A stretch of 64,000 nt of DNA from Thalassobaculaceae bacterium (lineage in GTDB: Bacteria; Pseudomonadota; Alphaproteobacteria; Thalassobaculales; Thalassobaculaceae). Below are positions 40,588 to 64,000 of this stretch, one piece after another (positions within the stretch are counted from its first letter, which is position 1; each line of letters begins with the position of its first letter). The notes below the pieces were generated by a model that was not told the origin of the DNA, searched no databases, and saw nothing but the letters and a program-made list of their open reading frames with translations. The position numbers and the translations under genes were made by a program. The stretch is from positions 4,384,616-4,448,615 of the forward strand of contig OZ245843.1 in assembly GCA_965228875.1 (NCBI GenBank). The letters run 5' to 3'.

Positions 40588-41043
40588 GTGGCGGTACGGT
40601 CTGTTTGGAGGACGATCGCTTGGTGGAGGACGGCGGCCGTTGCGGTCGCGCTGGCGACTGTTGCCGCCTTCTGGCCCTTCGACGCGCGGGCGGAGCAGAG
40701 GCTGGTCGTCGAACTGAACAAGCTCGAGAGTTTCGACGGCGGGTGCCGGACCTTCTTCCTCCTGCGCAACGCCGGGGGCGAGGCTTTCCAGTCGCTCGAC
40801 ATGTCGCTCGCGGTGCTGGACGGCGACGGCCGCATCGATCGCCTGCTGACCGTCGATGCGGCGCCCGTACCGGCGGACAGGACGAGCCTGAAGCTGTTCG
40901 AGATTCCTGACGTCGCCTGCGACGGCGTCGGCGAACTGCTCCTGTACGAGATCGGCGCGTGCGCGACCGGATCCGACGACGGCGGCGACTGTTTCGACAG
41001 GGTCGAGTTGCGGTCGCGGGCGTCGATCCCGTTCGTGAAATAG
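40588..41043 (+). CDS. Exported Cys-containing hypothetical protein upstream of exbB
   Basis: Signal peptide ending ARA; VELNKLE...GCR; four Cys residues. Confidence 0.75.
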   Translation: MAVRSVWRTIAWWRTAAVAVALATVAAFWPFDARAEQRLVVELNKLESFDGGCRTFFLLRNAGGEAFQSLDMSLAVLDGDGRIDRLLTVDAAPVPADRTSLKLFEIPDVACDGVGELLLYEIGACATGSDDGGDCFDRVELRSRASIPFVK

Positions 41044-41060
41044 CGCGCGACGGTCCTCCG

Positions 41061-41672
41061 ATGAGCATGTCTGCGATGATGGCTGCCGGAGGACCGATCG
41101 TTCTCCTTCTTCTGGTGCTCTCGGCGGTTTCGCTGGCGTTGATCGTCGCCAAGGCGGTGCAGATCGTCGGCGTCGCGCGTGGCCGGTCGACCCGGCTGGC
41201 GGCGGCTCGGGCCTGGGCCGAGAGCGGCGGCTCGGCGGCTGAGTTCGATGCCGGAGCCTTCGCCGGTCCGGTCGGACGCGTGTTCGAGGCCGCGGTTTCC
41301 GATCCGGCGGCGCCCGCGTCCACCCGCCACGCCCGTGCCGAGCGGGTCGCGCGCGGTGAACTGGCCGGGCTGCGCTCGACCCTCCGCCTGCTGGAGGTGA
41401 TCGCTGTGGTCAGCCCGCTGCTTGGCCTCCTCGGCACGGTCACCGGGCTGATCGAGGCGTTTCAGGCGTTGGAGCAGGTCGGCGGCGGAGCCAACGCCTC
41501 GGTCCTCTCCGGCGGTATCTGGCAGGCGCTGCTGACGACGGCGATGGGGCTGATCGTCGCCATCCCCGCGGCGGCGGCGGGCAATCTTCTGGACGCAAGG
41601 GTCGAGGCCGCCGCCGTCGAGATGGAAAACCTGGCGAGCGTGGTGTTCGGCGAAACGCTGGAAGCGCCTTAG
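41061..41672 (+). CDS. exbB: MotA/TolQ/ExbB proton channel protein
   Basis: SPLLGLLGTVTGLIEAF...GGIWQALLTTAMGLIVAIPA. Confidence 0.9.
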   Translation: MSMSAMMAAGGPIVLLLLVLSAVSLALIVAKAVQIVGVARGRSTRLAAARAWAESGGSAAEFDAGAFAGPVGRVFEAAVSDPAAPASTRHARAERVARGELAGLRSTLRLLEVIAVVSPLLGLLGTVTGLIEAFQALEQVGGGANASVLSGGIWQALLTTAMGLIVAIPAAAAGNLLDARVEAAAVEMENLASVVFGETLEAP

Positions 41673-41686
41673 GGGCGGGCGGACAG

Positions 41687-42121
41687 ATGCGGCTGACGCG
41701 ACGGCAGAGACCGAAAGCCCTGATCTCGCTGACGCCCCTGGTCGACGTCGTGCTGATCCTGCTGGTCTTCTTCATGGTGACCTCAAGCTACCTTGATCTC
41801 GACGCCTTTCCGCTGGTCGACCGGACCGACCGGCCAACCGCCGACGGCGCGGTGACGGGAGATGCCGGCGAAACCGAGGCAGGCGCACGGTCCTCCATGA
41901 TGATCCTGCGCCTGGGGGCGGACGAGATGGCGCGGGGGCCGGGATTCGCGGTACCGCTGGCGCGGATGGAAGAGGTTCGCCCGATCCTGGCGGAGTATCC
42001 CCGGATCGCGATCCTGCCCTCGGGTGGCGCCTCGCTTCAGGGGCTCGTGACCGCCCTGGACGCGCTGACGGCCATGGGGATGGCCGATGTCCAGATCGTC
42101 CGGATCGGGGGCCAGCCGTGA
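41687..42121 (+). CDS. exbD: ExbD/TolR family protein
   Basis: LTPLVDVVLILLVFFMV with conserved TM Asp. Confidence 0.88.
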   Translation: MRLTRRQRPKALISLTPLVDVVLILLVFFMVTSSYLDLDAFPLVDRTDRPTADGAVTGDAGETEAGARSSMMILRLGADEMARGPGFAVPLARMEEVRPILAEYPRIAILPSGGASLQGLVTALDALTAMGMADVQIVRIGGQP

Positions 42122-42522
42122 ACCTGCGTCAGGACCGCGCCCGAACCCCGTATGACAGCATCGCACCGCTGATAAATCTGTCGTTCCTGCTGCTGGTCTA
42201 CTTTCTCCTGATCGGCACATTCGATGCGAGTGCGCCGTTCGACGTCTACCCGCCGGTGGCGCGGACCGGCCAGGATCTGCCGGCCGGCGGGTCGGTCCTG
42301 AGTCTCTCGGCCGACGGCGATGTGGCGTTCGACGGCGAGACCGTCGAACGGGAGACTCTTGAAGCGGTGGCGCGCGCGGCGATCTCGGCGTCGCCGGAAA
42401 AGCGCTTCCTGCGGGTCAACGCCGATGGCCGGCTGCGCGTCCAAGAGATCCTGCCGCTGATCGACCTGATGGAGACGGCCGGAGCGACGACGGTGGTCCT
42501 GGTCGTCACTCCGCCCGGCTGA
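42118..42522 (+). CDS. exbD: Second ExbD/TolR family protein
   Basis: IAPLINLSFLLLVYFLL, RVNAD; Asn at the TM Asp position. Confidence 0.85.
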   Translation: MNLRQDRARTPYDSIAPLINLSFLLLVYFLLIGTFDASAPFDVYPPVARTGQDLPAGGSVLSLSADGDVAFDGETVERETLEAVARAAISASPEKRFLRVNADGRLRVQEILPLIDLMETAGATTVVLVVTPPG

Positions 42523-42540
42523 CCGGATGGGGGGCGGGTC

Positions 42541-44370
42541 GTGAGCGCGGTCGGCCTGGAGCGGCGTCCCGTGGCCTGGCCCGCGACCGTGGCGGCGGTG
42601 TTCGTCTCGCTCGCGGTCCATGGTCTGGCGGTCTACTGGCTCGACCGGCGGGATAGGGACGGTGAACCGCTGCGCCCCGGGCCGCTGACCAGCAGCATCG
42701 ACCTGTCCGGCGTCGACGTCCCCCAGTCCCGGGCGGAATCGACGCAACCGGAAACCACGCCGTCGCCCGAGGCAGAGGCAACGTCCGCCGCCTATGGCGC
42801 CGTCGGGATCCGCAGCAGCCGCGCCGAACCGGCCGTGCCGGAGCGGAAGGCGATCGCCGGCGCGCACGCCCCGTCTGAGCGGTTGTCCGGAGCACCGGGC
42901 GACGGCCGCACCGTGGAGGCCGGCGCGCCGCAGAGCCCTCGGCTGGCGACGCGCCCACCGGCGGCGGATCGGACCGCCGGTACGCCGCCTGAAGGAGAGA
43001 GACTGGCGGGCCGTGAAGCGCCGCTCCCCGCCAGTGCGGTCCCCGCCGCGACGCCTGCTGGCGAACCGGTGACCACGGCGGTTCCGGGAGACCTGTCGGA
43101 GCGGCGATCGGCGGCGTCGCCGGCGGCCGCTGTCACGGTGCCTGACATGCCAAGGCCCAAGCGGCTGGCCGAGGCGACGGCAGGTGCCGTCCGGGTCACC
43201 GGGGCGCAGCCGCCTTCCGCTGTCGCCGTCCAGAGCGCCGCTGCGGCGGATCGCGGCGAGGTGGTTCGTGCAGTCCGCGGCGAGGAGGTCGCGGCGACGT
43301 CGGCGGGCGTTGCGGACCGGGCCGTCGAGGTACCCCCGGCACCGCCGCCGACGGACCGTCGCGGTGATATCCGACCGGATGTGACCGAGGCAGCGAGCCG
43401 TGCGCCCGAAGTTGCTGAACAGGCGATGGCGACCGTCGCGGGTGAGGCGCCGAGGGTCGGGAACGCCCCCGCCCGTCTCGACCCGACGGTGGCGTCCGCC
43501 GGTCGCGCGACCGCCCTCGACCAAGTCCGGGCGGCGGCGGCACCGGTGCGGATGAGTTTCGCCGACTTGGCCGAAGCGCTCGCTGTGCTCGGCGACGAGG
43601 AATTCGCCCTGCTCACCGACGACGCTCGGGAGATCAGCCTCAGGCGGGCCGACGCGTTCAAGGGCGAGGTGGGCGACGTCATCGGACAGACGTTGGCATC
43701 CTTCCCTTGCAGTCGGTTGCAGGCCCGGTTCGACCCGGATAGCAACGTGATCGACGTGCGTGGCCATGTCGCCACGCAGGGTCTCGCCGAGCAGGTGTCG
43801 CCGCTGATGGCGCGGGTGACCGGGGGGTCGCTTGCGGTGACCTCCAGCGTCCAGATCCTGCCGTCCCCCCAATGCCGGGTGATGACGGCTTACGGCGCCA
43901 TGGGCATCCCCCAGTCGAGCGACCAGCTCGACGATCCACTGACCGTCGGTCAGGAAGCTCAGGCCGCAATTCTCGATTTCCGGGTCGGTGCGGTGATGGC
44001 CCTGGAGATAGAGACGCCCGACTTCCCGTCGTATATCCGCGTCGACCTGTACAGCAGCGACGGAAAGGTGCTGCATGTCGTGCCATGGCGCGGGTTCGGG
44101 CTGGAGCCCTTCGCCCCGGCGATGGCGCTGCGGGTCGGCGACGGCACCGGCGGCGGTCCGGTGCTGGAGGCGGCACCGCCGGTCGGCGTCGACGTCGCCG
44201 TCATGCTGGCGACCAGCGCGCCCCTGCCCGACGGCGAGCGACCGGTGTCCGAACCGGCGGACACCTACCAGAAATGGTTGGCGCGGAGCCTCGATGCGGC
44301 CGGCCGAAACGACCCGGAGTTCAGGGCCGAGTGGGTCTATGCACTGGTCGAGACGGTGGCTGCGAACTAA
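42541..44370 (+). CDS. TonB/TolA-like anchored protein with Pro/Ala-rich linker and C-terminal DUF4384-like domain
   Basis: TM with SLAVH (SxxxH), long low-complexity linker, C-terminal ETPDFPSYIRVDLYSSDGKVLHVVP...APPVGVDVAVMLATSAPL. Confidence 0.7.
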   Translation: MSAVGLERRPVAWPATVAAVFVSLAVHGLAVYWLDRRDRDGEPLRPGPLTSSIDLSGVDVPQSRAESTQPETTPSPEAEATSAAYGAVGIRSSRAEPAVPERKAIAGAHAPSERLSGAPGDGRTVEAGAPQSPRLATRPPAADRTAGTPPEGERLAGREAPLPASAVPAATPAGEPVTTAVPGDLSERRSAASPAAAVTVPDMPRPKRLAEATAGAVRVTGAQPPSAVAVQSAAAADRGEVVRAVRGEEVAATSAGVADRAVEVPPAPPPTDRRGDIRPDVTEAASRAPEVAEQAMATVAGEAPRVGNAPARLDPTVASAGRATALDQVRAAAAPVRMSFADLAEALAVLGDEEFALLTDDAREISLRRADAFKGEVGDVIGQTLASFPCSRLQARFDPDSNVIDVRGHVATQGLAEQVSPLMARVTGGSLAVTSSVQILPSPQCRVMTAYGAMGIPQSSDQLDDPLTVGQEAQAAILDFRVGAVMALEIETPDFPSYIRVDLYSSDGKVLHVVPWRGFGLEPFAPAMALRVGDGTGGGPVLEAAPPVGVDVAVMLATSAPLPDGERPVSEPADTYQKWLARSLDAAGRNDPEFRAEWVYALVETVAAN

Positions 44371-44554
44371 GAGCGAAGCCCGGCCGAGTCGAATTGACTC
44401 CCGGCCCCGGAAACACCACCATCCGACCTATACGGGAGGAGGCGCTCCCGGTGATTCCGAATGACATCGCAGCAACGGGCGGCCGCTCGAAGCCGGTCGC
44501 GCATGTTTCGGGGCCGGGCGTCTCATGCCGGCCGATCGACGTGAGGAGGTGGGG

Positions 44555-45211
44555 ATGATCTGCAATCGCCGAGGATTTCGGGCAGGTGTTGTCGCGGCCG
44601 GAATCCTGTTCATGATCGGCGGCACCTTGCAGGCGGCCGACAAGAGCGTTCGGCAGTTCGGAGAGAGCGCGACCAAGTCTCAGATGCTCGACTATCTGCT
44701 GAACTCGCCGGCCCCAACAGCGGCCCCGGCGGCGGTCGATAGCGACCTGCTCAAAGGCCTGCCGGCCAGGGTCGATCCGAACAGCGTGGCGACGCGCGGC
44801 GGCATTCTCAAGCCGGAGCGCGCGACGCCGAGCGTGACGGCCCAGTCACCCTGTCCTGTGACGGACAAGGCGTTCGGTACAACCGTCAACTTCGCCGTCG
44901 GCTCCTACTATCTGGAGCCGTCGACCTTCTCGGTTCTGGGCGAGGTGGCCGACCTGATGACCGATGAGAAGCTGAAGGACTGCGCCTTCGTGGTCGAGGG
45001 ACACACCGATTCCACGGGCAATCCGGATAAGAACAAGGTCCTGTCAAAGCAGCGGGCGGAGACGGTCGTGAAGTATCTCGAGAGCCATGGCGTGGCGGAC
45101 TCGCGGATGGAACTCGAGGGCAAGGGGAGCACCGAGCCGGCGGACCCGGTCAATCCGGCGGCCGATATCAACCGGCGGGTCCAGTTCCGTTTCGTCGACC
45201 GTCAGGGCTGA
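44555..45211 (+). CDS. Exported OmpA-family peptidoglycan-binding protein
   Basis: Signal peptide; VEGHTDSTG...NKVLSKQRAETV...NRRVQF; RBS GAGGAGG. Confidence 0.92.
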   Translation: MICNRRGFRAGVVAAGILFMIGGTLQAADKSVRQFGESATKSQMLDYLLNSPAPTAAPAAVDSDLLKGLPARVDPNSVATRGGILKPERATPSVTAQSPCPVTDKAFGTTVNFAVGSYYLEPSTFSVLGEVADLMTDEKLKDCAFVVEGHTDSTGNPDKNKVLSKQRAETVVKYLESHGVADSRMELEGKGSTEPADPVNPAADINRRVQFRFVDRQG

Positions 45212-45255
45212 CGGTCTGGTCGGGCGATGGCACCACCGAGGCCGACGCGCAACGC

Positions 45256-45846
45256 TCAGCCCGTCGGCCTGCGGTGTCGGGTGGTCAGCGCGCCGTCCGT
45301 GAGCGTGTAAACCGCGACCTGCTCCCCGGCATCCTCCTCGGCGACGAAGCCGGCCAGGGGGCCGAAGAACGGTGTCAGGGAATCCGGTGTACCGGTCTTC
45401 AGGAAAAGGTGCAGCGCCCTCGGATCGTAGTAGCGGAAGGCGAGGCTGCGCCCGTCCTCGGTCATCACGATGTTGAATTTCCGCAGGTGACGCCGCAGCG
45501 CCGTCAGCTCGAGCGGCGACAGGATGTAGATCCCCCAGGCCTGCCCCCAGCCGTCGCGCAGGAGCCAGTCGGCCAGCAGCGACCCCTCCTCGATTTCCAT
45601 CAGGTAGGGCGCGACTTCCGCAAGATCCTCGGCCAGTTCGCCCTGGTAGAGCGAACGGACCCCCGCGCCCGTTCCCTTCAGTTTGCGGTGGATCGCGGTG
45701 TCGCGGGCCGCATCCAATGCCGCGAACAGGCGCACGCCGCCGTTCCCCGATCGGGCGTCGCGCAGGATGTCGGCGAGCAACTGGCGTCGCGCCTCGATGA
45801 TGTTGCGGGAAGGGACGCCGGCATCCGGCGTGCCGATCATGCTCAT
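45256..45846 (-). CDS. DUF4123 T6SS effector chaperone/adaptor (Tap-1/TEC)
   Basis: LDAAR, SLY, APYL, WG, LRRHLR, FRYYDPR; overlaps the vgrG stop. Confidence 0.9.
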   Translation of the reverse strand: MSMIGTPDAGVPSRNIIEARRQLLADILRDARSGNGGVRLFAALDAARDTAIHRKLKGTGAGVRSLYQGELAEDLAEVAPYLMEIEEGSLLADWLLRDGWGQAWGIYILSPLELTALRRHLRKFNIVMTEDGRSLAFRYYDPRALHLFLKTGTPDSLTPFFGPLAGFVAEEDAGEQVAVYTLTDGALTTRHRRPTG

Positions 45847-47897
45847 GCGCCGGCCTCCCCGCAGATCTCGCAGAACGGAGTGCCCTTGACGGCGGCCTCG
45901 CGCAGGGCCGCGATCTGGCTGACGCGCTTGCGGGTGCCGGTACCCTTCGGCACGGTCTTCGGGCTGGTCAGGTCGGTCGTCGCACCCGGCTGGCCGTCAT
46001 CGGCTGCCGCGGGCGCGTCCGGCGCCTGCGGGTTTGCGCTCAGGCTGCCCGATGAGCCGCCGCTGTTGATGAGAACCATCGGGCCCTGGATGGTCACGCC
46101 GCTGGGCCCCAGCGTGATGAAGCCCGCGCCGGCCTTGATGGTCAGCATCATCCCGGCCTCGATCATCACCTCCATGCCGGCCTTCACCGCGTAGTTCGTA
46201 CCGGCCTTGGCGTGGAATTCCTGGGCGATGTCGAGGGAGTCGATACCGCCGATCCGGGTTGACCGGTCGCCACCGACATCTTCGTGCTGGTCGCCGCCGA
46301 CCTTCTCGAACCGATCGTTGACGACGGTCTCGTGATGCTGGTCGCCCACATGGCTCCGCAGCGTCTCCTTGATCCGGAGGTCCATGTCCTTCTGGCCGTG
46401 CACGAAGATCTGCTCGCTACCGGCCTTGTCCTCGAACCGCAATTCGTTGAACCCGCCGCCGCCGGGAGAGGAGTTCGTCTTGATCGTCGAGCGGGTCTTG
46501 TGACCGGGCGGATCGTAGACCGGTTCGTTGACGGCGTTGTGGACGACCCCGGTGATTAGCGGCCGGTCGGGATCTCCCTCCAGGAACGAGACGGCGACCT
46601 CCATGCCGATCCGCGGGATGAAGGTCTGGCCGAAGCGGATACCCGCCCATCCCTGGGCGACCCTGATCCAGCAGGAGCTCTTCTCGTCGTAGGCGCCGCG
46701 CCGATCCCAGTGAAACTGCACCTTCACCCGGCCGTGCCTGTCGACGTGGATCTCCTCGCCGCCCGGACCGGTGACGATGGCGGTCTGCAGGCCGTCGATC
46801 GTCGGTTTCGACGTGACCCGCGGAGCGCGGAACTGGGTGTCGGCGGGAATGCACTCGAAGGTCCCGCGGTATCGGGCGCCTCGCGGTTCGCCGAACTCCC
46901 AGTTGTTCTCCGCTTCGTGGGCGACGCGGGTGACAAGGTGGGAGACGTTGTAGCCTTCCACCTCGTGCTCGACGAGGTCGAAGGTGAAGCCTGGACAGAT
47001 GGTGAACTCGTTGGTGGTTCCGGTCCGCATCCGACTGCGCGCCTCGAGGGCCTCCATCCGGACCGAGGCGAAGGTGTCGCCGTCGCTCATCTCGCGGTAA
47101 CGGCCGGGATAGTCGAAGACCTCCAGATCCTGGGCCGCCGGCAGGCCGGCGTTCGATCCGATCCCGGCGATCAGCGAGGCCCGCGGCTTGAGCGGGTCGA
47201 AGTCGTTGAGCGTGACCCGGCCCGAGGTCACGCTTGCCACCTCCCGCCATTCCGACACGCCGGACTCGTCGTCCCCCATCTCCTGGCGGGCCGCCCGAAG
47301 GGTGGCGCCACCGGCGATCGGCTGGTGCGCCATGGCCGTGTCGGCGAGCACCAGCGTGTGCCGGTCGTCCTCATGCTCGAAGTAGTAGTAGATCCCCTCT
47401 TCCTCGAAGAGCCTGGACAGGAAGGCGAACGAGGTCTCGCGGTACTGGACGCAATAGGTCCGGTTGGCGAAGGCGCCGGACGTCTCGACGCGGAAATCGG
47501 TGAAGTTCATCTCGCCGAAGATCTCCTCGGCGATGGCGATCACGGATTTCTCCTGGAAGATCCTCGAGTCGGCCCGCAGCGACAGGAACCAGAACCAGGG
47601 ACGCAGCGTGAGGGAGTAATGGTGGACCTGGTCGCTCTGCCGATAGCCGTCATACTCGAAGGCGGCGACATACCCGTGAAAGTGCCGGTCGCGGCCCTCG
47701 ACCGTCGTCAGCGTCACCACCGCCGGCAGCCCGAGAATCTCCGACGGGTCCGCGATCGGATCGAGGGCGAAGGCCCGCACCCGGAACGCGAACAGTTCCG
47801 AGAGCGCTTCCTCGCCGGCCACCGATACGGCGAAGAGCCGGTCCGGTCCGAGCGGGGTGGCCATCCGCAGCAAATGGCTCGACTGGGCTCGATCCAT
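45843..47897 (-). CDS. vgrG: T6SS spike protein VgrG (TssI)
   Basis: GEEALSELF, CVQYRETSFAFLSRLFEEEGIYYYF, GRVKVQFHWDR, IPRIGMEV, NELRFED; C-terminal PFCEIC. Confidence 0.96.
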   Translation of the reverse strand: MDRAQSSHLLRMATPLGPDRLFAVSVAGEEALSELFAFRVRAFALDPIADPSEILGLPAVVTLTTVEGRDRHFHGYVAAFEYDGYRQSDQVHHYSLTLRPWFWFLSLRADSRIFQEKSVIAIAEEIFGEMNFTDFRVETSGAFANRTYCVQYRETSFAFLSRLFEEEGIYYYFEHEDDRHTLVLADTAMAHQPIAGGATLRAARQEMGDDESGVSEWREVASVTSGRVTLNDFDPLKPRASLIAGIGSNAGLPAAQDLEVFDYPGRYREMSDGDTFASVRMEALEARSRMRTGTTNEFTICPGFTFDLVEHEVEGYNVSHLVTRVAHEAENNWEFGEPRGARYRGTFECIPADTQFRAPRVTSKPTIDGLQTAIVTGPGGEEIHVDRHGRVKVQFHWDRRGAYDEKSSCWIRVAQGWAGIRFGQTFIPRIGMEVAVSFLEGDPDRPLITGVVHNAVNEPVYDPPGHKTRSTIKTNSSPGGGGFNELRFEDKAGSEQIFVHGQKDMDLRIKETLRSHVGDQHHETVVNDRFEKVGGDQHEDVGGDRSTRIGGIDSLDIAQEFHAKAGTNYAVKAGMEVMIEAGMMLTIKAGAGFITLGPSGVTIQGPMVLINSGGSSGSLSANPQAPDAPAAADDGQPGATTDLTSPKTVPKGTGTRKRVSQIAALREAAVKGTPFCEICGEAGA

Positions 47898-48060
47898 GTG
47901 AGGTCCGCTTCTCCCTGAGCCGGGTCTCGGTCGCATCATATCCAGGGCCGGGGGCCTCGGCCATAGATCGAATGTCTCGGGGTGGTGTAGCGCAAGTTGC
48001 GCGTTTCCTCTACAAGTTCCCCGGATCGTTGGGGTGGCAGTTCTTATTCTGGAGAGCACG

Positions 48061-51493: not shown

Positions 51494-51576
51494 CGATGGC
51501 ACGGCGCCGCCATTCCATTTGAACGGCCTGAGCAAAGCCGTGTAAGGTTGAGTTGCCACCATCTGTTGCGTACTGC

Positions 51577-56673: not shown

Positions 56674-57785
56674 CCGAGCGCCTGCGGGAGGCGCCGGAGA
56701 CGTTCGGCATCCTGCAACTGGCGCGGCTGGTGTCTCTCGTGCGGGCCGGCGGCCCTGAACGGAGGTTTCCGGGTGGGGTTCGATACCGCTCGAACCCGGC
56801 GCTCGATTACCCCGTCGCGGCGGTGGAGGCGGTCGAAGAGGAGCCCGACGGTGGCTGGACCGCCGACGTCAACCTGATCGGCACGCTCGGGCCGAACGGA
56901 ACGCTCCCGTGGCACTACAACGAGCAGATCGTTCGCCACGAGCAGACCGTTGTGGACGGCCGGCGTCCCTCGATCCGCGCCTTCTACGACATATTCGACC
57001 ACCATTTCGCCGAACTGCTCTGCGCGGTGCTCGCGCGCCGCCACCTCGCTCTGGCGGTCGAGCGCGGCGAGGAGCGCGGTCTGGAGCGGGTGCTGAACAG
57101 CGTTGCCGGGATCGGTCTGCCGGCGGTGCGCGATGTGTTTCGCGATACGCAGACCTTCCGGGTTCGACAGCTTCAGCGCTTCGCCGGCCTGCTCGGCCGT
57201 ACGCCAAGCTCGCCCCAGGCGGTGTCGCAGATGCTCACGGCGATTCTCGGCGTGCGGGTGGAGGTCCGGCCGTTCGAAGGGCACTGGACCTATCTTCCGC
57301 CGGCGTCGCGGGCGCGGCTCGGGCGCAGGAGCGGTAGCCGGACACGCGGTGGGTCGGGCGCGCGCGCGCCCCGACTGGGCGACTGGCCGACACTCGGCGG
57401 GCGGGTCTGGGGCCTTCAGGGGGCCATGGGCGTCCGGGTCGGACCGCTGAGCGGCGCGGAGTTCGCCCGGTTCCTTCCGAACGGCCGGGGCCGGTCCCTG
57501 ATCTCCGCCGCGCTGGTCCAGGAACTCATTCTGTTCCTTCGCCTGACGCTGGGGGCGAACTACGACTACAAGATCAATCTGACGGTCGCGCGCGAGGCGA
57601 TCCGGGGCACTCGGCTGAGGCAAAGGCCCGCGCGGGGAGCGCAGGCCGACGGTGTGCCCGGCGAACTTCCGCCCCTTCTCGGTCTCACGACCTGGGTCAG
57701 CGGCAGGCAATCGCGGGATCGGGACGACCCGGTGCTGTGGGTCGGTGGATGGCAGAAACTGGAGGTAGGGGCGTCTCATGGATAG
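56637..57785 (+). CDS. tssG: T6SS baseplate TssG
   Basis: GTLGPNGTLPWHY, FYDIFDH, VGPLS..EF..FLP, LGLTTW; overlaps the tssF end. Confidence 0.9.
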   Translation: MAMPRGRLPDRIAERLREAPETFGILQLARLVSLVRAGGPERRFPGGVRYRSNPALDYPVAAVEAVEEEPDGGWTADVNLIGTLGPNGTLPWHYNEQIVRHEQTVVDGRRPSIRAFYDIFDHHFAELLCAVLARRHLALAVERGEERGLERVLNSVAGIGLPAVRDVFRDTQTFRVRQLQRFAGLLGRTPSSPQAVSQMLTAILGVRVEVRPFEGHWTYLPPASRARLGRRSGSRTRGGSGARAPRLGDWPTLGGRVWGLQGAMGVRVGPLSGAEFARFLPNGRGRSLISAALVQELILFLRLTLGANYDYKINLTVAREAIRGTRLRQRPARGAQADGVPGELPPLLGLTTWVSGRQSRDRDDPVLWVGGWQKLEVGASHG

Positions 57786-59250
57786 TCTTCGGCGCGTGTT
57801 TTGGAGTGACGGCCTGTTCCTGACGCCGCAGGTGTTTCAACAGCAGGACGCCTTCCACATCGGCATGTGGCGGGTGCTATGGCGTGCGCTCGGCCCGAAC
57901 TTCTGGGGGATCCGCCACATCGAACTCCACGAAGAGGGGCTTCGGGCCGGCGATTTTAGTGTCGCCAAGCTCGACCTCGTCACCCGTCAGGGCGACGTGG
58001 TGCGCTACGGCATCGCAGGTCGCGAGGACAACTGTGTCGTCCGGGCCCGTCACTTCGGCAGCGCCCTGACGCCGGGGCAGACGGAGGTGAACGTCTACCT
58101 GGCGATCGCCGTGCGCGACGGTCACCGCAGCAACATCATGGACCGCTCGCAGGAGGCCGAGGCGGACGGTGCCGTGGCACGGTTCGTTGCCGGCGAACGC
58201 GAGGCCAGCGACGATTTCCACCCGTCTTCGTCCGAGCCGTCGATGCTCGATCTCGCCGATTTCGTCGTGCAGTTCCTGATCGATACGGATCCCGGTTTCT
58301 CCACCGCGAGCAGCCGCTACGACTGCTTCCACCTGGCGCGACTGCGGCCGGTCGGCGGCGGAGCGGAACCGGTTCAGAGCTTCGTCCCGCCGGTGATGAT
58401 GCTCGGCGCCTCACCGGCGCTGAGCCGCCTGGTTCGCAACATGTGCGCGGAGGTGACGCGACGGACCCTGGAATACGAGGAGATCAAGAACGAGCGCAGC
58501 GACGTGAAGGGGCAGGAGTCCTCGGCCCGCGACGCTCTGGTGAAGTCCATGCTGCTGGTCCTCAATCGGGCCAACGCGGAGTTCCGGATCCTGCAGTCCA
58601 GCCTGGACCGCGACCACAACAGCATGAGCGCGCATCCGGAGGACGTGTACAACCGCGTGCGGGTTCTGATCTCGGAGCTGTCGACCTTTTCGACGGCCGT
58701 GGGCTCCGATGGAACGATCACCGTCGGCGACAAGCCGGTTCCGCTGCCGGACTACGATCACGAGGACCCCTATCCCGTCTTCGAGAAGCTCTCCAGGGCG
58801 CTGGAGCGTGCTCTCAACGCACTGGTCATCAACCTCGAAGGCCAGGTGGAGCTGAAGTTCGACGGCCAGCACTACGCCGCCGACCTTCCGGAGACGTTCT
58901 TCGGCGGACCGAAGGCGATCTACTATCTCGCCGTGGATGCCGAGAACCGCTCCCGCGACCGGGTCTTCAGTGACGTGCGGGACCGGATCTACAAATTGTC
59001 CAGCGGACAGATGGCGGAGCGGATCATCGAAGTGAACGCTCCGGGCATCGACATGGAGCCGCTGCAGGACATGCCGGTGGAGTTGTCGTTGCTGACCCGA
59101 CGCTATGCGTGTTTCCGGATCGACAAGGGACATCCGGACTGGCGCAACGTGGAGAACGACAAATCGATCAAGTTCCTGGCCAAGGAAATCGACCCGTCCG
59201 AGGCCAAGATTCTGATCATCCAGTCCGAGCCGGACCGGCGGCTCGATTAG
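57778..59250 (+). CDS. tssK: T6SS baseplate connector TssK
   Basis: VFWSDGLFLTPQVFQQQD, FWG, FVPP, HPEDVY, LPDYDHED..PVF. Confidence 0.9.
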   Translation: MDSLRRVFWSDGLFLTPQVFQQQDAFHIGMWRVLWRALGPNFWGIRHIELHEEGLRAGDFSVAKLDLVTRQGDVVRYGIAGREDNCVVRARHFGSALTPGQTEVNVYLAIAVRDGHRSNIMDRSQEAEADGAVARFVAGEREASDDFHPSSSEPSMLDLADFVVQFLIDTDPGFSTASSRYDCFHLARLRPVGGGAEPVQSFVPPVMMLGASPALSRLVRNMCAEVTRRTLEYEEIKNERSDVKGQESSARDALVKSMLLVLNRANAEFRILQSSLDRDHNSMSAHPEDVYNRVRVLISELSTFSTAVGSDGTITVGDKPVPLPDYDHEDPYPVFEKLSRALERALNALVINLEGQVELKFDGQHYAADLPETFFGGPKAIYYLAVDAENRSRDRVFSDVRDRIYKLSSGQMAERIIEVNAPGIDMEPLQDMPVELSLLTRRYACFRIDKGHPDWRNVENDKSIKFLAKEIDPSEAKILIIQSEPDRRLD

Positions 59251-59386
59251 GATCAAGGCGGTGTGCGCTAAGTAGCATTGACGATAGTTCGCTGGCGGAG
59301 TTCCCTAAGTGCGGGAAAATCTATCCGGCGGAGTTTGAGGCAGGGACTATTCGTGGCGCGTCGAACCGGGCGTGGGATGGGGGAGC

Positions 59387-60409
59387 ATGGCCGACAGTCA
59401 GACGGGCGCCGAGGCGCCGAAGGAAACGGACGGCGAGGCGGTACCCGCCGAGGGGCAGGAAGCCGCCGCGGCGTCACCACCTGCAGCGGCGTTCTCGGAG
59501 AATATCGCGGCGATCGACAGGACCACGGCGGCGGCGGTTGCGACGCTGCGTCGGGCGGAGCCGAAGCACAAGGGATCGGACCCTCTCTACAACATTCCCT
59601 GGTATCTGTTCCTCGGCCCCTCGTCGGAGTCCGTGGAACAGCTGCTGCGCGCGGTGCCGAACGGCGACATCCTTGCGCCGGGGCAGGCGGAGCCGGCGGG
59701 CGAGACGCTTCGCTGGTGGAACCTGCGACGGGCGATCGGTATCTCCTGGCCTTCAACGCTGCTCTGCTCCCATGACGACCGGGAACGCTGGCAGGTCGTG
59801 GAGCATGCGATGGAATCGCTGCTCAAGGCGCGCAAGCATCTGCCGGTGAACGGGATCGTGGTCGTGGTTCCGGTCGCCGACCTCGTCGACGGGTCGGGGC
59901 GGCTCGACAGACTGGCGCGGGTGATCCGCGATATCGTCAACGAGATGCGGACCACGCTTAAGTTCAGCTTTCCGACGACGGTGGTCGTCACCGGCCTGGA
60001 TCGGCTCACGGGACATGACGCGTTCTTCGGTGGCCTCGACCGGACCACGGAGCAGGCGCTCGGGATCCGGCTGGACGATGCCATGCGGCAGGCGGATGTC
60101 AGGGCGACGATGGCGACCACCTTCGCGCAGTGGCGCGACCGGCTGCACGAGATCCGCATGTCGCTGCTGCGGCAGCCGGCCGAGAAGGTCGACATGCGGG
60201 GGGTGTTCCGGTTCATCCCCGAGTTCGAGCGGCTGGAGGCGCCGCTGGCGGCACTGGTCGAGACCCTGTTCTCCGAGAGTCCGGGAGACAACCGGCGACC
60301 GCAGTGGCGGGCGCTGTATCTGACGGCGCCGGGCAGCAGGGAACCGCATCTCAAGGACCTGTTCGATCACTTTCTTCCTGTCGACGCCTCGCTCGCGACG
60401 CGGGCGTGA
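59387..60409 (+). CDS. Stand-alone TssM/IcmF N-terminal cytoplasmic domain (no TM or periplasmic part)
   Basis: LYNIPWYLFLG, LRWW, W...L.KAR...PVNGIVVVV, FPTTVVVTGLDRLTG..AFF, QALG, F..EF, WRALYLT, HLKDLF; stop where the TM would begin. Confidence 0.8.
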   Translation: MADSQTGAEAPKETDGEAVPAEGQEAAAASPPAAAFSENIAAIDRTTAAAVATLRRAEPKHKGSDPLYNIPWYLFLGPSSESVEQLLRAVPNGDILAPGQAEPAGETLRWWNLRRAIGISWPSTLLCSHDDRERWQVVEHAMESLLKARKHLPVNGIVVVVPVADLVDGSGRLDRLARVIRDIVNEMRTTLKFSFPTTVVVTGLDRLTGHDAFFGGLDRTTEQALGIRLDDAMRQADVRATMATTFAQWRDRLHEIRMSLLRQPAEKVDMRGVFRFIPEFERLEAPLAALVETLFSESPGDNRRPQWRALYLTAPGSREPHLKDLFDHFLPVDASLATRA

Positions 60410-60475
60410 GCGAGGTGTGGTGATGATCGGCGCGGCGGAGCGACGACGTTTCAAACCCTGGTCGGGGGCGACCGA

Positions 60476-61885
60476 ATGACCGAACGACGTAGCCTTCTGG
60501 ACGTGTTCACCCCGGTGATGCTGGACGTCCTCGATGTCGAGGATGGCCTCGCCCGGGGCGATGGCAGCGTGCCCTCGGCGGAGCAGAAGACGGAGGAATG
60601 GCTGGCGACGATCGACGAGGCGGTCGCCACGGCCGAACGCCTCGGCCACAGCAGCCAGAACGCAGAGATCGCCAAGCGTGCCGTGATCGCCTGGATCGAC
60701 GACATCATGGGGCTCCGGCGGGACTGGTACGGCCGGGTCACCAACCTTCAGTCCCGCGTGTACAACGGCGCCTCGGTGCTCGGCCGAAAGTTCTACGAGG
60801 ACCTGGAGGCCCTCAGCAAGGACAGTCAGAGAGACGTCTTCGACGTGTTCTTCGTCTGCCTCGCCCTCGGCTTCAAGGGAGAGAAGCTCCTGTACGCCGG
60901 ATCCGACGTGGACCGCGAGGCGGCCCGCCTCAAGCAGGATGTCAGTTTCCACCTGTCGACGGACCGCATCGATCTCGACAGGCTGCCCGGCCAGAAGATC
61001 TTCGCCCAGCCCTATCAGCAGGACGACCCGCCGCCGCCGCCGCCGGGCCCGCCTCTGCCGCGATCCTATGGCAAGATCCTTGCTGCGCTGGCGGCGGTTC
61101 TGTTGCTGGCGGCGATCGGCGCCGGGTACTGGCTGACCCGGAGCGAGACCGACTGGCGGGCGCATATCCAGGCGGCGGCCGAGGAGGCGGTTGGGCGCTA
61201 CGAATGCGCCAGCGTCTCGGTCCGGACGGCGCCGGACCTGTCGCTGTCCTACAAGGGTTTCGTCGGGTCGGAGGACGATCGCGGCGCGCTCGAGGCGGAC
61301 CTGCTGGGCATCGAGCGGGTGGAGCGGGTCACCGGCACGCTTGAGGTCATGCCTTGGCCGCTTTGCGCCGTGCTTGTGATCCTGGAGGATACGGTGCTCA
61401 ACGACGGTTCCCGGTCGGAGACTCCGACGGTTGCGGTCAACCATCGTGACGGGAGGTATCGTCACCGCGACCTCCTGGTCACTGACGTGACGGTGCCGGC
61501 GGCGGAGCCCGGTCACCTTCTGGTCAGCTATGTCGGGCAGGCGGACACCGTCACCCATCTGTTCCCGAACGAAGACGTCGTTTCCAGCCGGGCCGATCCG
61601 AAGATGCGATTGCGCCTCGGATACGCGGAAGGCGCGGCCTCCGATGCCGGCGGGTACGATGTGCAGACCAACCTCATGTATCCGCTGTCGGCGGACCCCG
61701 AAGGGCCCAGTCTGGTGTTCGCTGTCTGGAGCGCGGAACCGATCCTCGACGGCTTCGCGCCGGTGTCGCAGCAGCGGACCGACGAGTTCCTTGCGGCGCT
61801 CCGCGCGGCTGTGGATGCGTCCAATGCGTCGGACGACGCCGCCAGGCTCTATGCCCGCACGGTGACGATCACCGTGGCCCGGTAG
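60476..61885 (+). CDS. tssL: TssL/DotU fused to a periplasmic Cys-pair + DUF4384-like module
   Basis: AVIAWIDD, LQ..YN....G.KFYE.L, VFFVCLALGFKG; poly-Pro, TM, then a non-OmpA periplasmic region. Confidence 0.85.
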   Translation: MTERRSLLDVFTPVMLDVLDVEDGLARGDGSVPSAEQKTEEWLATIDEAVATAERLGHSSQNAEIAKRAVIAWIDDIMGLRRDWYGRVTNLQSRVYNGASVLGRKFYEDLEALSKDSQRDVFDVFFVCLALGFKGEKLLYAGSDVDREAARLKQDVSFHLSTDRIDLDRLPGQKIFAQPYQQDDPPPPPPGPPLPRSYGKILAALAAVLLLAAIGAGYWLTRSETDWRAHIQAAAEEAVGRYECASVSVRTAPDLSLSYKGFVGSEDDRGALEADLLGIERVERVTGTLEVMPWPLCAVLVILEDTVLNDGSRSETPTVAVNHRDGRYRHRDLLVTDVTVPAAEPGHLLVSYVGQADTVTHLFPNEDVVSSRADPKMRLRLGYAEGAASDAGGYDVQTNLMYPLSADPEGPSLVFAVWSAEPILDGFAPVSQQRTDEFLAALRAAVDASNASDDAARLYARTVTITVAR

Positions 61886-61928
61886 ACGGCGCGGGTACGG
61901 GGCTAGGCAGGGGGAGGAGAAGCACGGG

Positions 61929-63128
61929 ATGGATGCTGGCGTGTTTTCGGCCGACGCGGTGCTTCATGCCGCGCTGTATGGCACGTTCATCGTCATGATC
62001 GTTGCGATCGCCGCCAACGACTGCGCCGGCGCGGTCGCGCTGGTCTGCGTCGACGGCACGGTCGACATGCGCGCAGCGCAGGTCCTGATCGCGGTGTTCC
62101 TGGTTGTGGGCGCCGTGTTCGTCGCGCCACCCGTCCTCGATCGCCTGATTCTGCCGCTGATCGCCCTGGAGGACTTCCGCGCCGCACCCTTTGCCGGACC
62201 GACGGTCCTGTTCAGCGCCGTCGTGCCGCTGGCGCTGGCGACGGTGTTCGGCGTCCCGGTCTCCGCATCGGCTCTGGTGGTCCTGGCCGTCCTCGGGGTC
62301 ATCGTCGAGCGCGGAGGAGGCGTCGATGCCGCCGCGGCTGGCCGGCTGGCGTTCGCACTGCTGCTGCTGCCCGCCATAGCCTGCGGGGTCGGTCGAGGGT
62401 TGGCGTGGGCGTTTCGGGACCGAGCCGTTTCGGGCTCCCGGCCGCGCGATGCGCTGACCTGGGCTCTCCCGGGACTGGCGGCGTTGCTCGCCGCAGCGAC
62501 CGTCGTCGTCGTCGCGCTGCTGACGGATCTGCACGGGCCCGTCGCGCAGGTCTCGGCGATCGTCGCGGGCATCGCTGTCATCGCGGCCTTCGCGGTCGGC
62601 GGCGTGTATCTGCTGCGCATTCGCCGGTCGCCGTTCTGGGTGTCCAACGACCGTCAAGGGTTCGAGGCGGCGCATGGATCGCTGTCGCTGGCGTGCGGCG
62701 CCCTCGGCGGCCTGTTGCTCAGCGGTGTCAATGTCGGCATGGCGATTGCGCTTTTGTCGGTCCTGCTGAACGGGGGAGGCGCCGGCGTGAGCTTCGCCAG
62801 CCCGCCGCTCTGGCTCGGCCTCGGGCTGGCGTTCCTGACCGTTCTGCTGGCCGGCCATCATCTGGCGGGACGACTGGAGCGTGCCGGACTGACGCCGGAG
62901 CCGTCGCAGGCCGCGATCGGGACCATAGGCGCGTTCGTCGGCGCCGCGCTGGCGGCCGTCGTGCACGCCCCACTGCCCCCCAGCCTGACACTGGCATCCG
63001 GACAGTGCGGAGCGGCGGGTGACCTCCGCACAACGGCGCGGTGGCTCGGCATCGGACTCCTGGTCGGCCTGCTGTCCTTCGCCCTTTCCTTTGCCGTGGA
63101 TCTGGCGCTCCGCCTTCTGGCGGAGTGA
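61929..63128 (+). CDS. Polytopic membrane protein, degenerate PiT/PHO4 phosphate-transporter-like
   Basis: AANDCAGAVA resembles GANDxANA; GVPVSASALVV resembles G(L)PVSTTH; about 10-12 TM helices. Confidence 0.55.
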   Translation: MDAGVFSADAVLHAALYGTFIVMIVAIAANDCAGAVALVCVDGTVDMRAAQVLIAVFLVVGAVFVAPPVLDRLILPLIALEDFRAAPFAGPTVLFSAVVPLALATVFGVPVSASALVVLAVLGVIVERGGGVDAAAAGRLAFALLLLPAIACGVGRGLAWAFRDRAVSGSRPRDALTWALPGLAALLAAATVVVVALLTDLHGPVAQVSAIVAGIAVIAAFAVGGVYLLRIRRSPFWVSNDRQGFEAAHGSLSLACGALGGLLLSGVNVGMAIALLSVLLNGGGAGVSFASPPLWLGLGLAFLTVLLAGHHLAGRLERAGLTPEPSQAAIGTIGAFVGAALAAVVHAPLPPSLTLASGQCGAAGDLRTTARWLGIGLLVGLLSFALSFAVDLALRLLAE

Positions 63129-63149
63129 CGCCGAAGGGAGCTCGTTGCC

Positions 63150-63854
63150 ATGCTGTCCGCCGCGCTCAGTCAAGTCCATCCGACCGTCGGTTTCGCCGTC
63201 CTGTTGTGTCTGGCCGCCGTGGCCGTGTGCGTGACCGCCATGCCGGTGCTCCGTGGGGCGGCGGCGGGCGTCGATCCCATGACGCTACGACGCGCGGCGC
63301 GCGCCGCGCGGGCGCCGCACCGGCCGCTGCTGTCTCTGTTCAACACGGGCCGGCGCCGGATCGTCGCCCTGGCCGGCATCGGGACGCTTGTTGCCGTGTT
63401 CGGGTTCGGCAGCCTCGGTCTGGTGGCGTTCGACAGCAGGATACGGGGTCAGAATTCGGCGATCGCCGAGCGTCACCGCCTGGAGGGCGAGATCGAGGCG
63501 GCGCGGGCGCAGACGAAGGAGGCGGAACGTCGTGCCAGCGAGGCGCTGGCGGCAAGGGACGAGGCGCATCGCGAGGAGATGCTGGACCAGGAGGCGCGCT
63601 ACCAGAAGCGGATCGAGGAGCTCAAGGCGGAACACCAGGCGGAGGTGAACAGCCTGACCCTGAAGTTCCAGGAGGACCTGGCGCGCCAGGGGGAGACCGA
63701 CGAGTTGAAGAACTCGGTCAGCAGCATGCAGATGCAGCTTCTGGAGCAGACCAACAGGACGCTGACCATCGAACTCGACCGGGCGAAGGAGATCATCCTG
63801 GATCAGGCGGCCCGGATCCGGGCGCTCGAGGAGAAGCTGGCGGAAGGCAACTGA
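63150..63854 (+). CDS. Hypothetical membrane-anchored coiled-coil protein
   Basis: Two hydrophobic segments followed by an E/K/Q-rich heptad region. Confidence 0.7.
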   Translation: MLSAALSQVHPTVGFAVLLCLAAVAVCVTAMPVLRGAAAGVDPMTLRRAARAARAPHRPLLSLFNTGRRRIVALAGIGTLVAVFGFGSLGLVAFDSRIRGQNSAIAERHRLEGEIEAARAQTKEAERRASEALAARDEAHREEMLDQEARYQKRIEELKAEHQAEVNSLTLKFQEDLARQGETDELKNSVSSMQMQLLEQTNRTLTIELDRAKEIILDQAARIRALEEKLAEGN

Positions 63855-63894
63855 CGGACCCGTTCATGGCAGGAACACGGCGGATGGAACGCCC

Positions 63895-64000
63895 ATGATC
63901 ATCGCCAACAGTCAGGTGACGGCCATGCGGTCGGTCGGGTGGACGGCGTGGCGGCAGCGGCATGCCGACGCCCTCGAGTCCCTGCTGCCCGAAATCGCGG
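63895..64000 (+). CDS. Hypothetical protein, partial (runs off the window)
   Basis: ATG at 63895, MIIANSQVTAMRSVGWTAWRQRHADALESLLPEIA, open to the end. Confidence 0.45.
   Translation, partial: MIIANSQVTAMRSVGWTAWRQRHADALESLLPEIA

Follow-up and report, generated by a model that had tools for sequence, protein, structure and literature searches.

The window analyzed here is a 64,000-nucleotide stretch (C1:4384616-4448615) of a Thalassobaculaceae genome that is complete in a single contig (4.96 Mb, ~69% G+C). From position 40588 onward it encodes a type VI secretion system (T6SS) beside an operon for an ExbB/ExbD-type motor with a TonB-like anchor. A preliminary description of this DNA had proposed a T6SS subtype in which an ExbBD/DUF4384 module, driven by proton-motive force (PMF), takes the place of the periplasmic parts of TssM and TssJ. 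We find that the T6SS is real, intact, and of undescribed architecture, and that the proposal stands in part: the locus is a distinct variant whose motor cassette is linked to T6SS genes in 3/3 places where it could be found, whereas the idea of replacement sits poorly with a related cassette that lies beside a 1190-residue TssM (in genome G076, below). Because six-frame lists of open reading frames are uninformative at ~69% G+C, genes were chosen by third-position GC; they were annotated with Pfam and NCBIfam, and coordinates are window positions unless given as genome positions (C1 or Mb).

A Complete Tail and Baseplate With a Single-Chain Sheath

The core operon runs from 51.6 to 61.9 kb in the order tssBC-hcp-tssE-F-G-K-tssM(short)-tssL. 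Its first gene (51615-53546, plus strand) is the sole sheath gene of the locus, VipB_2 included, and encodes TssB and TssC as one chain of 643 residues (Pfam VipA 10-132, VipB 208-513, VipB_2 526-627) that scores 405 bits against the NCBIfam model TIGR03355 (cut-off 271.5). On the same strand follow genes for the tube protein Hcp (53675-54181; PF05638, E 6.4e-23), TssE (54305-54793; PF04965, and 77 bits to TIGR03357), TssF (54790-56673; PF05947, E 1.6e-164), TssG (56637-57785; PF06996, E 7.5e-56), and TssK (57778-59250; PF05936, E 7.2e-60). The VgrG spike is encoded on the minus strand at 45843 to ~47900 (~685 residues from an internal Met; Phage_GPD, Phage_base_V, and Gp5_trimer_C domains; 592 bits to TIGR03361 over residues 12-522), next to a Tla1/Tap-like DUF4123 adaptor or chaperone (45256-45846, minus strand; PF13503, E 1.1e-29, with a weak match to NF053803). 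No effector gene lies behind the adaptor gene; its next neighbor is the convergent OmpA-family gene described below.

These tail proteins had been called recognizable, and all of them exceed Pfam gathering scores, Hcp included; VgrG, TssE, TssF, TssG, and TssK also pass their NCBIfam cut-offs, with Hcp falling below its own (51.9 vs. 58.9 bits). The core genes match their Pfam profiles over full length, none of the 22 listed genes contains a frameshift or internal stop, and the third-position GC of the locus genes (0.80-0.88) is like that of core genes. The contractile and baseplate parts are complete: TssBC, Hcp, VgrG with its DUF4123 adaptor, and TssE/F/G/K.

In the sheath tree, a quick maximum-likelihood search only, the window sheath groups with the database proteins P0002 and P0003 (support 100) on a stem of length 1.93, away from both the main TssC cloud and the remaining fused-sheath clades. 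A single chain, as such, is not peculiar to this locus: we rejected the idea that the fused sheath is unique, since fused frames occur in several clades, including that of the second T6SS of the source genome (T6SS-2, below). Also rejected was the idea that a fused sheath implies a short TssM, as the TssM frames at L095 and L101, both with fused sheaths, run to 1171 and 1196 residues. Separately, four one-frame TssB-TssC loci from metagenomes (L030, L072, L075, L076) are nearly identical in the tree to two-gene loci (L032, L058, L026), and some metagenome sheath "fusions" may be recent stop-codon losses or assembly errors.

A Reduced TssM and an Extended TssL

The sole TssM- and TssL-family genes of the locus encode a TssM cytoplasmic domain devoid of transmembrane (TM) segments and a TssL, and the earlier characterization of the former as soluble and truncated and of the latter as carrying an unusual periplasmic module was accurate on both counts. 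The short TssM (59372-60409, plus strand; 345 residues) matches PF14331 (IcmF-related_N) only and covers positions 68-363 of TIGR03348, a TssM model of 1168 positions (121.9 bits vs. a cut-off of 388). The periplasmic TssM domains PF06761, PF21070, and PF06744 are absent from it by Pfam, and a Kyte-Doolittle scan found no TM segment. Its stop-to-stop frame measures 357 codons, which leaves no room for a concealed TM part. The Walker A site is degenerate here and in the orthologue.

The TssL (60476-61885, plus strand; 469 residues) belongs to the DotU family (PF09850, 65.6 bits; 53.9 bits to TIGR03349, below the cut-off of 89.95), and its AlphaFold model (pLDDT 73) matches the fold of TssL 6y4r with Z 16.6 in VIA-align. 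A single TM segment (residues 201-219) leads into ~250 periplasmic residues composed of a domain resembling BON domains and ring-building motifs (BON/RBM-like), then a DUF4384-type beta-sandwich.

The short tssM and tssL share one reading frame (59339-61885), and between them stand a single TGA (60407-60409) and 66 nucleotides free of in-frame stops; such a same-frame layout has a one-in-three chance, and the proteins of the relative are recorded as separate.

An Exb Motor Cassette Whose Anchor Shares the TssL Module

Upstream, on the plus strand, lies the operon p151-exbB-exbD-exbD-p609, in which neighboring genes overlap or stand apart by no more than 18 nucleotides. Its first gene, p151 (40588-41043), encodes a small exported protein with an N-terminal hydrophobic segment and no Pfam or NCBIfam family. 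The ExbB/TolQ-like proton channel subunit (41061-41672, alternative start 40959; PF01618, E 1.3e-27) has three TM segments, and its best NCBIfam match, at 71.7 bits and below cut-off, is TolQ. Of the two ExbD/TolR-like subunits, the first (41687-42121; PF02472) has Asp20 in its TM segment and the second (42118-42522; PF02472, E 1.4e-16) has Asn20 at that position; a mixed ExbD1/ExbD2 pair may sit inside the ExbB channel. All three channel proteins exceed Pfam gathering scores, with every NCBIfam equivalog far below cut-off. The last gene, p609 (42541-44370), encodes a TonB/TolA-like anchor of 609 residues with an N-terminal TM segment bearing an S-x3-H motif, an Ala/Pro-rich linker, and a C-terminal module (the head; BON/RBM-like domain plus DUF4384-type beta-sandwich, ~375-606); it has no TonB_C domain and no Pfam or NCBIfam match at all. 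The S-x3-H motif was read in p609, in the relatives P0131, P0123, and P0124, and in the G076 anchor. Immediately downstream of the operon lies the gene for an exported OmpA-family protein of the peptidoglycan-binding type (44525-45211, plus strand; PF00691, E 6.9e-20), which has a signal-like N-terminus and no lipobox Cys; a Pfam scan of the locus revealed no TolB-like gene. The preliminary description had correctly placed the exb, TonB-like, and OmpA genes upstream of the T6SS, together with a C14 protease and a lipoprotein hydrolase (see below), and its observation that the TonB-like protein and TssL carry similar modules proved well founded, as follows.

The p609 and TssL modules align over the C-terminal 200-230 residues. 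The likeness is faint between the two sequences (BLASTP E 0.053 over 227 residues), clearer between a p609-family profile and the TssL sequence (89.8%, E 1.8e-6), and strong between a TssL-family profile of nine sequences and a p609-family profile of five (hhalign 99.7%, E 4.5e-27, 226 columns). The DUF4384 label needs qualification: against PF14326 (gathering score 27 bits) the window TssL C-terminus is below significance (12.9 bits, E 0.12) and p609 has no match, but relatives are significant, namely the TssL orthologue P0132 (27.4 bits), the G076 anchor (27.9 bits), and P0123-P0125, for which the match is precomputed. Among relatives of both modules, DUF4384 is often preceded by BON or YscD-periplasmic (Yop-YscD_ppl) matches in Pfam.

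Structure predictions agree with this picture. The models of the p609 head (pLDDT 77, pTM 0.75) and of TssL share the same order, a helix-strand-strand-helix-strand domain and then a beta-sandwich. In VIA-align, the first subdomain matches CdsD, YscD, DolP, OsmY, and BonA with Z 9.7-6.6 for p609 and 10.0-8.3 for TssL (CdsD 10.0, DolP 9.9), over ~63-70 residues at a root-mean-square deviation (rmsd) of 1.6-3.1 A; the second is an Ig/MG-like sandwich (Z 6-9). A Foldseek search of the p609 head against the PDB gave no match at E <= 0.001, and a PDB sequence search with the p609 family gave low-complexity matches and YscD at E 0.32 only. The model-based fold matches, together with those in Pfam, support the name "BON/RBM-like" for the first subdomain, a name that does not imply ring formation.

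As a query, the TssL head finds 296 representative proteins at E <= 0.001. Among the best 89 of these, Pfam recognizes DUF4384 in 86 (E <= 1e-4); 32 are Ser/Thr kinases, seven are DotU/TssL fusions (all metagenomic), two are FHA proteins (one with T6SS_FHA_C), three are papain-like proteases, one is a cyclase, and the rest are small proteins. FHA-TM-DUF4384 proteins exist among the module relatives. A TonB-like S-x3-H anchor occurs in 1/150 module proteins among the matches listed, and the p609 family (S-x3-H anchor plus Ala/Pro linker) is a separate, rarer branch of five proteins. DUF4384 is named among the accessory domains found in one proteobacterial kinase family (10.1101/2025.01.12.632604) and is mentioned for cyanobacterial orthocaspases (PMC7475262); in a search that did not reach subscription journals, no paper mentioning DUF4384 had a title concerning T6SS.

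Rarity, Conservation, and the Question of Decay

A search of 5.8 billion clustered proteins, in which the 8000 candidates sharing most words were scored, returned for the sheath one near-identical cluster (99%) and two orthologue clusters (P0002, 58%; P0003, 57%), with the next match at 34%. These orthologues have 625-644 residues vs. 643 here. The short TssM has one orthologue, P0127 (346 residues, 57% identical), and the periplasmic part of TssL has one close relative in 1.84 billion representatives, P0132 (469 residues, 50%), which likewise joins DotU to DUF4384. No orthologous locus was found in GTDB representatives, where two scans gave 54 and 36 pattern matches and none was confirmed, nor in the metagenome contig collection, where all 80 loci kept were <=42% identical and none had a match to the exb, p609, C14, hydrolase, OmpA, p399, or p467 genes. 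These comparisons support the view that the locus is a distinct, intact, and very rare T6SS variant, with a reduced TssM and with a TssL predicted to carry a BON-like plus DUF4384 periplasmic module.

A truncated TssM, a sheath that could be fused through a lost stop codon, the lack of TssA, TssJ, ClpV, and PAAR in cis, and a DUF4123 adaptor with no effector gene behind it are also what a decaying remnant that fires nothing would leave. We regard decay as very improbable. The 22 genes are free of frameshifts and internal stops, the core genes cover their profiles in full, third-position GC is like that of core genes, and the odd lengths of TssM (346 residues), sheath (625-644), and TssL (469) are kept in other organisms at 50-58% identity, which argues against decay; on the evidence of these conserved orthologues the explanation appears largely refuted.

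Relatives also tell where the locus lies in the genome. Within the genus, the window portion ~30001-34685 has a counterpart of ~85% identity in 7/10 other genomes and of 62-68% in two more, and the DNA downstream from ~68950 (a radical-SAM gene, 90-93% identity) is present in 7/10. Between them, 40305-50000 and 63386-68950 had no DNA counterpart in any of the 10; between 40305 and 68950 the comparison covered these two stretches and, through the TssBC query, 51615-53546. A TssBC orthologue is absent from all 10, and a sheath match of any kind to the window TssBC query occurs in just one (a canonical TssC, 39% identity). Since the genus genomes lack the flanking blocks and the TssBC orthologue, the exb cassette and the tss genes are, by this comparison, parts of one strain-specific segment of ~28 kb.

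The left edge of the variable region that holds this island is a tRNA-Ser(CGA) (34589-34678, plus strand; ARAGORN), and no direct repeat of its 3' end was found at the far side of the island. After the tRNA, within 34589-40304, come genes for a NapC/NirT cytochrome, a molybdopterin oxidoreductase, and a Crp-type regulator, a block (34890-40304) that sits at another chromosomal place in 3/10 genus genomes. At the other end, an autotransporter with a beta-barrel domain (PF03797) at C1:4451600-4453228 (window-equivalent 66985-68613) closes the strain-specific segment. A promoter and terminator scan of 39.5-54.5 kb gave site numbers not above those of shuffled sequences.

Parts Absent in cis and the Other T6SS Loci of the Genome

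As had been reported for the window, TssA, TssJ, ClpV (TssH), and PAAR are not visible in it, and they are equally missing from the next five genes past its end. A genome-wide six-frame search located a single TssJ (PF12790) at 1.94 Mb. The genome likewise has one TssM with the periplasmic domain PF06761, one ClpV above the TIGR03345 cut-off (1.93 Mb), two ImpA_N proteins (PF06812, TssA) at 1.94 Mb and 4.537 Mb, and one PAAR at 4.03 Mb. TssJ, this TssM, ClpV, and one TssA belong to a complete canonical system, T6SS-1, at 1.93-1.95 Mb. Such a set elsewhere in the genome, serving this locus, is what the preliminary description had named as speaking against its proposal; the set is there, and it may or may not serve the window locus.

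These counts are the basis for a second explanation, in which the window T6SS is incomplete and borrows TssJ, full TssM, TssA, and ClpV from T6SS-1, its odd TssM and TssL acting as adaptors to a foreign membrane complex. The explanation draws strength from single copies: TssJ, full TssM, and ClpV (above cut-off) each occur exactly once in the genome, in T6SS-1, the two ImpA_N proteins are in T6SS-1 and T6SS-2, and the PAAR gene is single. However, a distant relative keeps both the short TssM and the TssL-DUF4384, in length as well as in sequence, as expected of a self-standing design; core proteins of the window T6SS and T6SS-1 are only ~25-39% identical; G076 has a T6SS without any TssJ match genome-wide; and Francisella is known to use a general ClpB-type unfoldase where other systems have ClpV. 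We consider borrowing of this kind quite unlikely.

The source strain has three T6SS loci. Beyond its canonical set, T6SS-1 contains an accessory, 593-residue fused VipA-VipB-like gene lacking VipB_2 (C1:1940208-1941989, plus strand), divergent from tssA. T6SS-2, at C1:4524850-4547000 and ~86 kb past the window, is non-canonical: its single-chain sheath of 820 residues has a long insert between the TssB and TssC parts and groups in the quick tree with G039, L038, P0004, and P0005, and it is accompanied by a 403-residue ImpA_N protein, a 1348-residue TssM-like protein (PF14331 alone recognized), a 301-residue DotU, a SPOR-domain neighbor, and a VgrG with DUF2169/pentapeptide genes. ClpV, TssJ, and TssG were not among the proteins recognized there.

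Linkage of the Exb Cassette and the Module to T6SS Genes

The cassette lies beside T6SS genes in all three places where it could be found: the window, a metagenomic (JGI) contig, and G076. For the second of these, the sheath P0002, the short TssM P0127, the TssL-DUF4384 P0132, and the TonB-like-DUF4384 protein P0131 (676 residues) share a longest contig of 28,083 bp, and the sheath P0128 and the TonB-like protein P0122 (cut) both have a longest contig of 19,669 bp. Such evidence is indirect, but two shared contig sizes make chance coincidence unlikely, and this relative apparently has fused sheath, short TssM, TssL-DUF4384, and TonB-like-DUF4384 on one 28-kb contig.

The third place, G076, is a genome of the same class and another family, found among 400 phylum genomes as the only one with the TssL head, and it is the top match for both the p151 query and the p609 head (39% identity, E 1e-51). 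On its 66.9-kb contig C71 lie genes for a YceI-OmpA protein, a C14 protease, a 333-residue protein, and a 527-residue TonB-like-DUF4384 anchor, then two ExbD (48% to ExbD2 and 40% to ExbD1), an ExbB (44%), and a p151 homologue (55%). A 281-residue gene separates this cassette from a divergent run of tssA-tssB-tssC-hcp-impE-tssE-F-G-clpV, continued by vgrG-DUF6931-PAAR-fha-tssK-tssL(OmpA)-tssM-tagF. The TssM of this system has 1190 residues with all four TssM domains, and no TssJ match exists in the genome. Both G076 sheath matches are on C71, which is therefore its only T6SS locus; the second, a VipB-like match, is at C71:53927-54778. Because this T6SS has a full-length TssM, the cassette is not tied to a reduced membrane complex and is not just a stand-in for TssM. 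G076 also encodes, on its small contig C72, a kinase with a related C-terminal module, beside an OmpA gene.

We next consider each component by itself. Homologues of p151 (27-43% identity) occur in 41/400 class genomes. At 21 p151 loci (from 20 of these 41 genomes, plus the source genome's own paralogue), an ExbB match is present in 10 and T6SS, p609, or C14 matches in none. The p609 head, by comparison, has matches in 15/400 other class genomes, and at 16 module loci from 14 genomes other than G076 there is no ExbB or ExbD match. T6SS genes are near the module in 6/16 of these loci, the module gene being a PpkA-like kinase in all six (Pkinase in 6/6, DUF4384 in 5/6, BON in the sixth), and an OmpA-family gene lies within ~5 kb of the module gene in 8/16. 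So far the Ton-like form, which is rare, has been encountered only next to T6SS genes, and the module at large is associated time and again with T6SS and paired with OmpA genes. The six PpkA-like kinases that end in BON/DUF4384 (L190, L192, L193, L194, L195, and L196, in genomes G684, G708, G754, G671, G587, and G647) directly adjoin T6SS genes, usually with an OmpA-family gene beside them, a pattern suggesting that, in this class, BON/DUF4384 serves the T6SS phosphorylation pathway as a periplasmic input module not described before.

The same data speak to a third explanation, that the exb/TonB-like/OmpA cassette is an independent Tol/Ton-like envelope or signaling system merely co-traveling in T6SS islands. 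Operons of p151-ExbB(-ExbD) without a nearby T6SS are common, as the p151 counts attest (41/400 genomes; T6SS at 0/21 loci), the cassette is a separate transcription unit in the window, convergent with vgrG, and DUF4384 modules are found as well on papain-like proteases, a cyclase, and many kinases with no shown T6SS context. Yet the DUF4384-headed TonB-like form lies only beside T6SS genes (3/3 loci), ExbB/ExbD matches are absent from the 16 other module loci, and the p609 head is homologous to the periplasmic domain of a TssL encoded 16 kb away; chance adjacency to T6SS in two unrelated genomes would also be improbable. We judge independence of the cassette to be unlikely.

Neighboring Genes

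Between the vgrG unit and the core operon are two further genes on the plus strand. The first (48034-50571) encodes an exported or anchored, repeat-containing C14 protein of 845 residues, whose C-terminal protease domain (Peptidase_C14, PF00656, residues 574-777) keeps the His (SGHG) and Cys (DSCQSG) motifs. The second (50546-51493) encodes a lipoprotein-type alpha/beta hydrolase with a lipobox-like VSAC, a GFSGG nucleophile elbow, and a weak Abhydrolase_1 match (E 2.2e-4, below cut-off); it has no similarity to the 333-residue gene after the G076 C14 gene. The C14 gene is divergent from vgrG, and the vgrG-DUF4123 pair is convergent with the OmpA gene. Both the C14 protease, in the periplasm, and the lipoprotein hydrolase probably act as additional accessories in the envelope.

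Five genes trail tssL without gaps, all on the plus strand. The first, p399 (61929-63128), starts 44 nucleotides past tssL and encodes a membrane protein of ~12 TM segments that is distantly PiT (PHO4)-like (PF01384, 40.6 bits vs. 33.7; PDB 6l85, E 0.014), an ion-coupled-transporter-like protein within a T6SS operon. Next come p234 (63150-63854), with two TM segments, a long coiled coil, and weak coiled-coil-type matches only, and p116, which starts inside the window (63895-64000) and runs to 64245; beyond the window lie p467 (64200-65603), for which PDB sequence searches were empty, and p236 (65605-66315). The last three (63895-66315, the operon end) belong to no family and are candidate cargo of VgrG. 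None of the C14, hydrolase, p399, p234, p116, p467, and p236 genes has a paralogue in the source genome or a homologue on G076 C71.

A Model for the T6SS Envelope Complex

We hypothesize that the locus encodes an intact T6SS with a rebuilt membrane complex and a linked Exb motor that would act as a PMF-dependent accessory, a reading that we think probable, with moderate confidence, on the strength of gene content, homology, and neighborhood. The TssL module would form or anchor the periplasmic part of the system, either by oligomerizing in the manner of the ring-building domains of YscD and PrgH in type III secretion systems (T3SS), by recruiting the free OmpA protein to peptidoglycan, or both; TssL module and free OmpA protein would together correspond to the known TssL-OmpA long form divided into two polypeptides. 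The ExbB-ExbD1/ExbD2 motor would use PMF to move the p609 anchor, whose head could dock on that shared partner, be it the TssL module or the OmpA protein, by analogy with the action of TolQRA on Pal. In this way PMF would contribute to a step by which the apparatus is positioned, anchored, or triggered. Most simply, the cassette would be a T6SS accessory built like Tol-Pal or Ton, with a proton channel, two ExbD/TolR paralogues, an extended anchor whose head is a paralogue of the TssL head, and an OmpA-type protein.

Such an accessory role in anchoring or triggering seems more likely than plain replacement of TssM/TssJ, because the G076 T6SS keeps a full-length TssM and DUF4384 sits on T6SS-linked PpkA-like kinases. 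Both partner T6SSs (window and G076) have no TssJ in cis, which fits a role at the outer envelope and is no proof of one.

Several observations weigh against this model. The convergent vgrG unit lies between the exb operon and the main tss operon. The linkage comprises three loci only, one of which is deduced from a shared contig size, its DNA unseen, and the p151 loci without T6SS, p609, or C14 matches (0/21) show the first cassette gene in other company. The G076 partner is a canonical T6SS (separate TssB/TssC, ClpV, TssA, TssL-OmpA, full TssM), and the C14 proteins of the window and G076 are not orthologous. T6SS-1 could supply TssJ, TssM, TssA, and ClpV in trans. Finally, Z values of 8-10 over ~65 residues are only modestly above the VIA-align background.

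A bolder version of the model, possible but one toward which we remain skeptical, is that this is the first T6SS with an ion-motor-coupled envelope: an ExbB-ExbD1/D2 motor would pull on a ring or anchor of TssL heads, or on its OmpA partner, through a TonB/TolA-like arm with the same kind of head, TssM would be reduced to a cytoplasmic adaptor, and PMF would serve to seat, open, or fire the apparatus. BON-DUF4384 plus OmpA would then be a general, undescribed periplasmic input module that can be wired to TssL, PpkA-like kinases, Fha, or a Ton-like motor. If the motor link is true, it would connect T6SS assembly or firing to PMF and provide the first testable role for DUF4384, a widespread domain of unknown function. 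The system is compact and intact, in an organism with a complete genome sequence, and is thus directly testable.

Comparison With Known Systems

The crossing of the envelope by T6SS is understood for the TssJLM complex and, since recently, for the unrelated complex of Bacteroidota. With the canonical T6SS-i the window locus has in common Hcp, VgrG, TssE/F/G/K, VipA/VipB/VipB_2, the DotU domain, and a homologous TssM cytoplasmic domain. It differs in its one-chain TssB-TssC, in a TssM without the three TM segments and the whole periplasmic part, in the lack of TssJ, TssA, ClpV, and PAAR in cis, and in the periplasmic part of TssL, which is nothing or OmpA in the canonical system and BON-like plus DUF4384 here. 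A long form of TssL (TIGR03350) with a C-terminal OmpA-like peptidoglycan-binding domain is well known, as are the accessories TagL, TagN, and TagP. The window system resembles these in having a TssL extended into the periplasm and an OmpA-type domain in the system, but the extension is BON-like plus DUF4384, and the OmpA domain is exported as a protein of its own; in G076, TssL and OmpA are fused in the classical way.

The S-x3-H TM motif defines TonB/TolA anchors, and Pal is encoded alongside the Tol genes. The window cassette shares with ExbB-ExbD-TonB and TolQ-TolR-TolA-Pal an ExbB/TolQ, two ExbD/TolR, an S-x3-H anchor with a Pro/Ala linker, and an adjacent OmpA-family gene. However, the C-terminus of its anchor is neither TonB_C nor TolA III and instead is the module held in common with TssL, and it departs from Tol-Pal in an OmpA protein without a lipobox and in an ExbD2 with Asn at the position of the TM Asp. 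Motor-powered secretion has a parallel in GldLM/PorLM, the MotAB/ExbBD-like ion-driven motor that powers the type IX secretion system; the likeness lies in the principle, as that is another secretion system with other proteins. For an ExbBD-type motor in T6SS, or an ExbBD link to the T6SS membrane complex, a literature search that did not extend to subscription journals found no description.

Two further comparisons concern the module. With YscD/CdsD/PrgH of T3SS, which combine FHA, TM, and ring-building motifs, the first subdomain of TssL and p609 superposes on the CdsD and YscD ring-building domains (Z 10.0, 9.7, and 8.3; rmsd 1.8-2.3 A; 63-66 residues), but by sequence it does not belong to that family, and the match to the BON proteins DolP, OsmY, and BonA is just as good. 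PpkA and Fha form the threonine-phosphorylation pathway of T6SS activation. There, BON/DUF4384 constitutes the C-terminal, presumably periplasmic part of T6SS-adjacent PpkA-like kinases and is found on T6SS Fha-type proteins as well; the window locus, in contrast, has no kinase, phosphatase, or Fha, and its modules are on TssL and a TonB-like anchor.

Under the same limit of search (subscription journals outside it), no paper came to light that describes a natural single-chain T6SS sheath, a TssM without TM segments, or a TssL-DUF4384. A precedent for keeping the tail and baseplate and rebuilding the envelope complex is the T6SS-iii of Bacteroidota with its non-homologous TssNQOPR membrane complex (PMC10781749); a term search of that paper returned no mention of TonB, ExbB, OmpA, or proton. 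Unlike the Bacteroidota system, the window locus keeps TssL and a piece of TssM. It would thereby represent a third design of the T6SS envelope, beside TssJLM and the Bacteroidota complex, composed of TssL, the cytoplasmic piece of TssM, and a periplasmic module.

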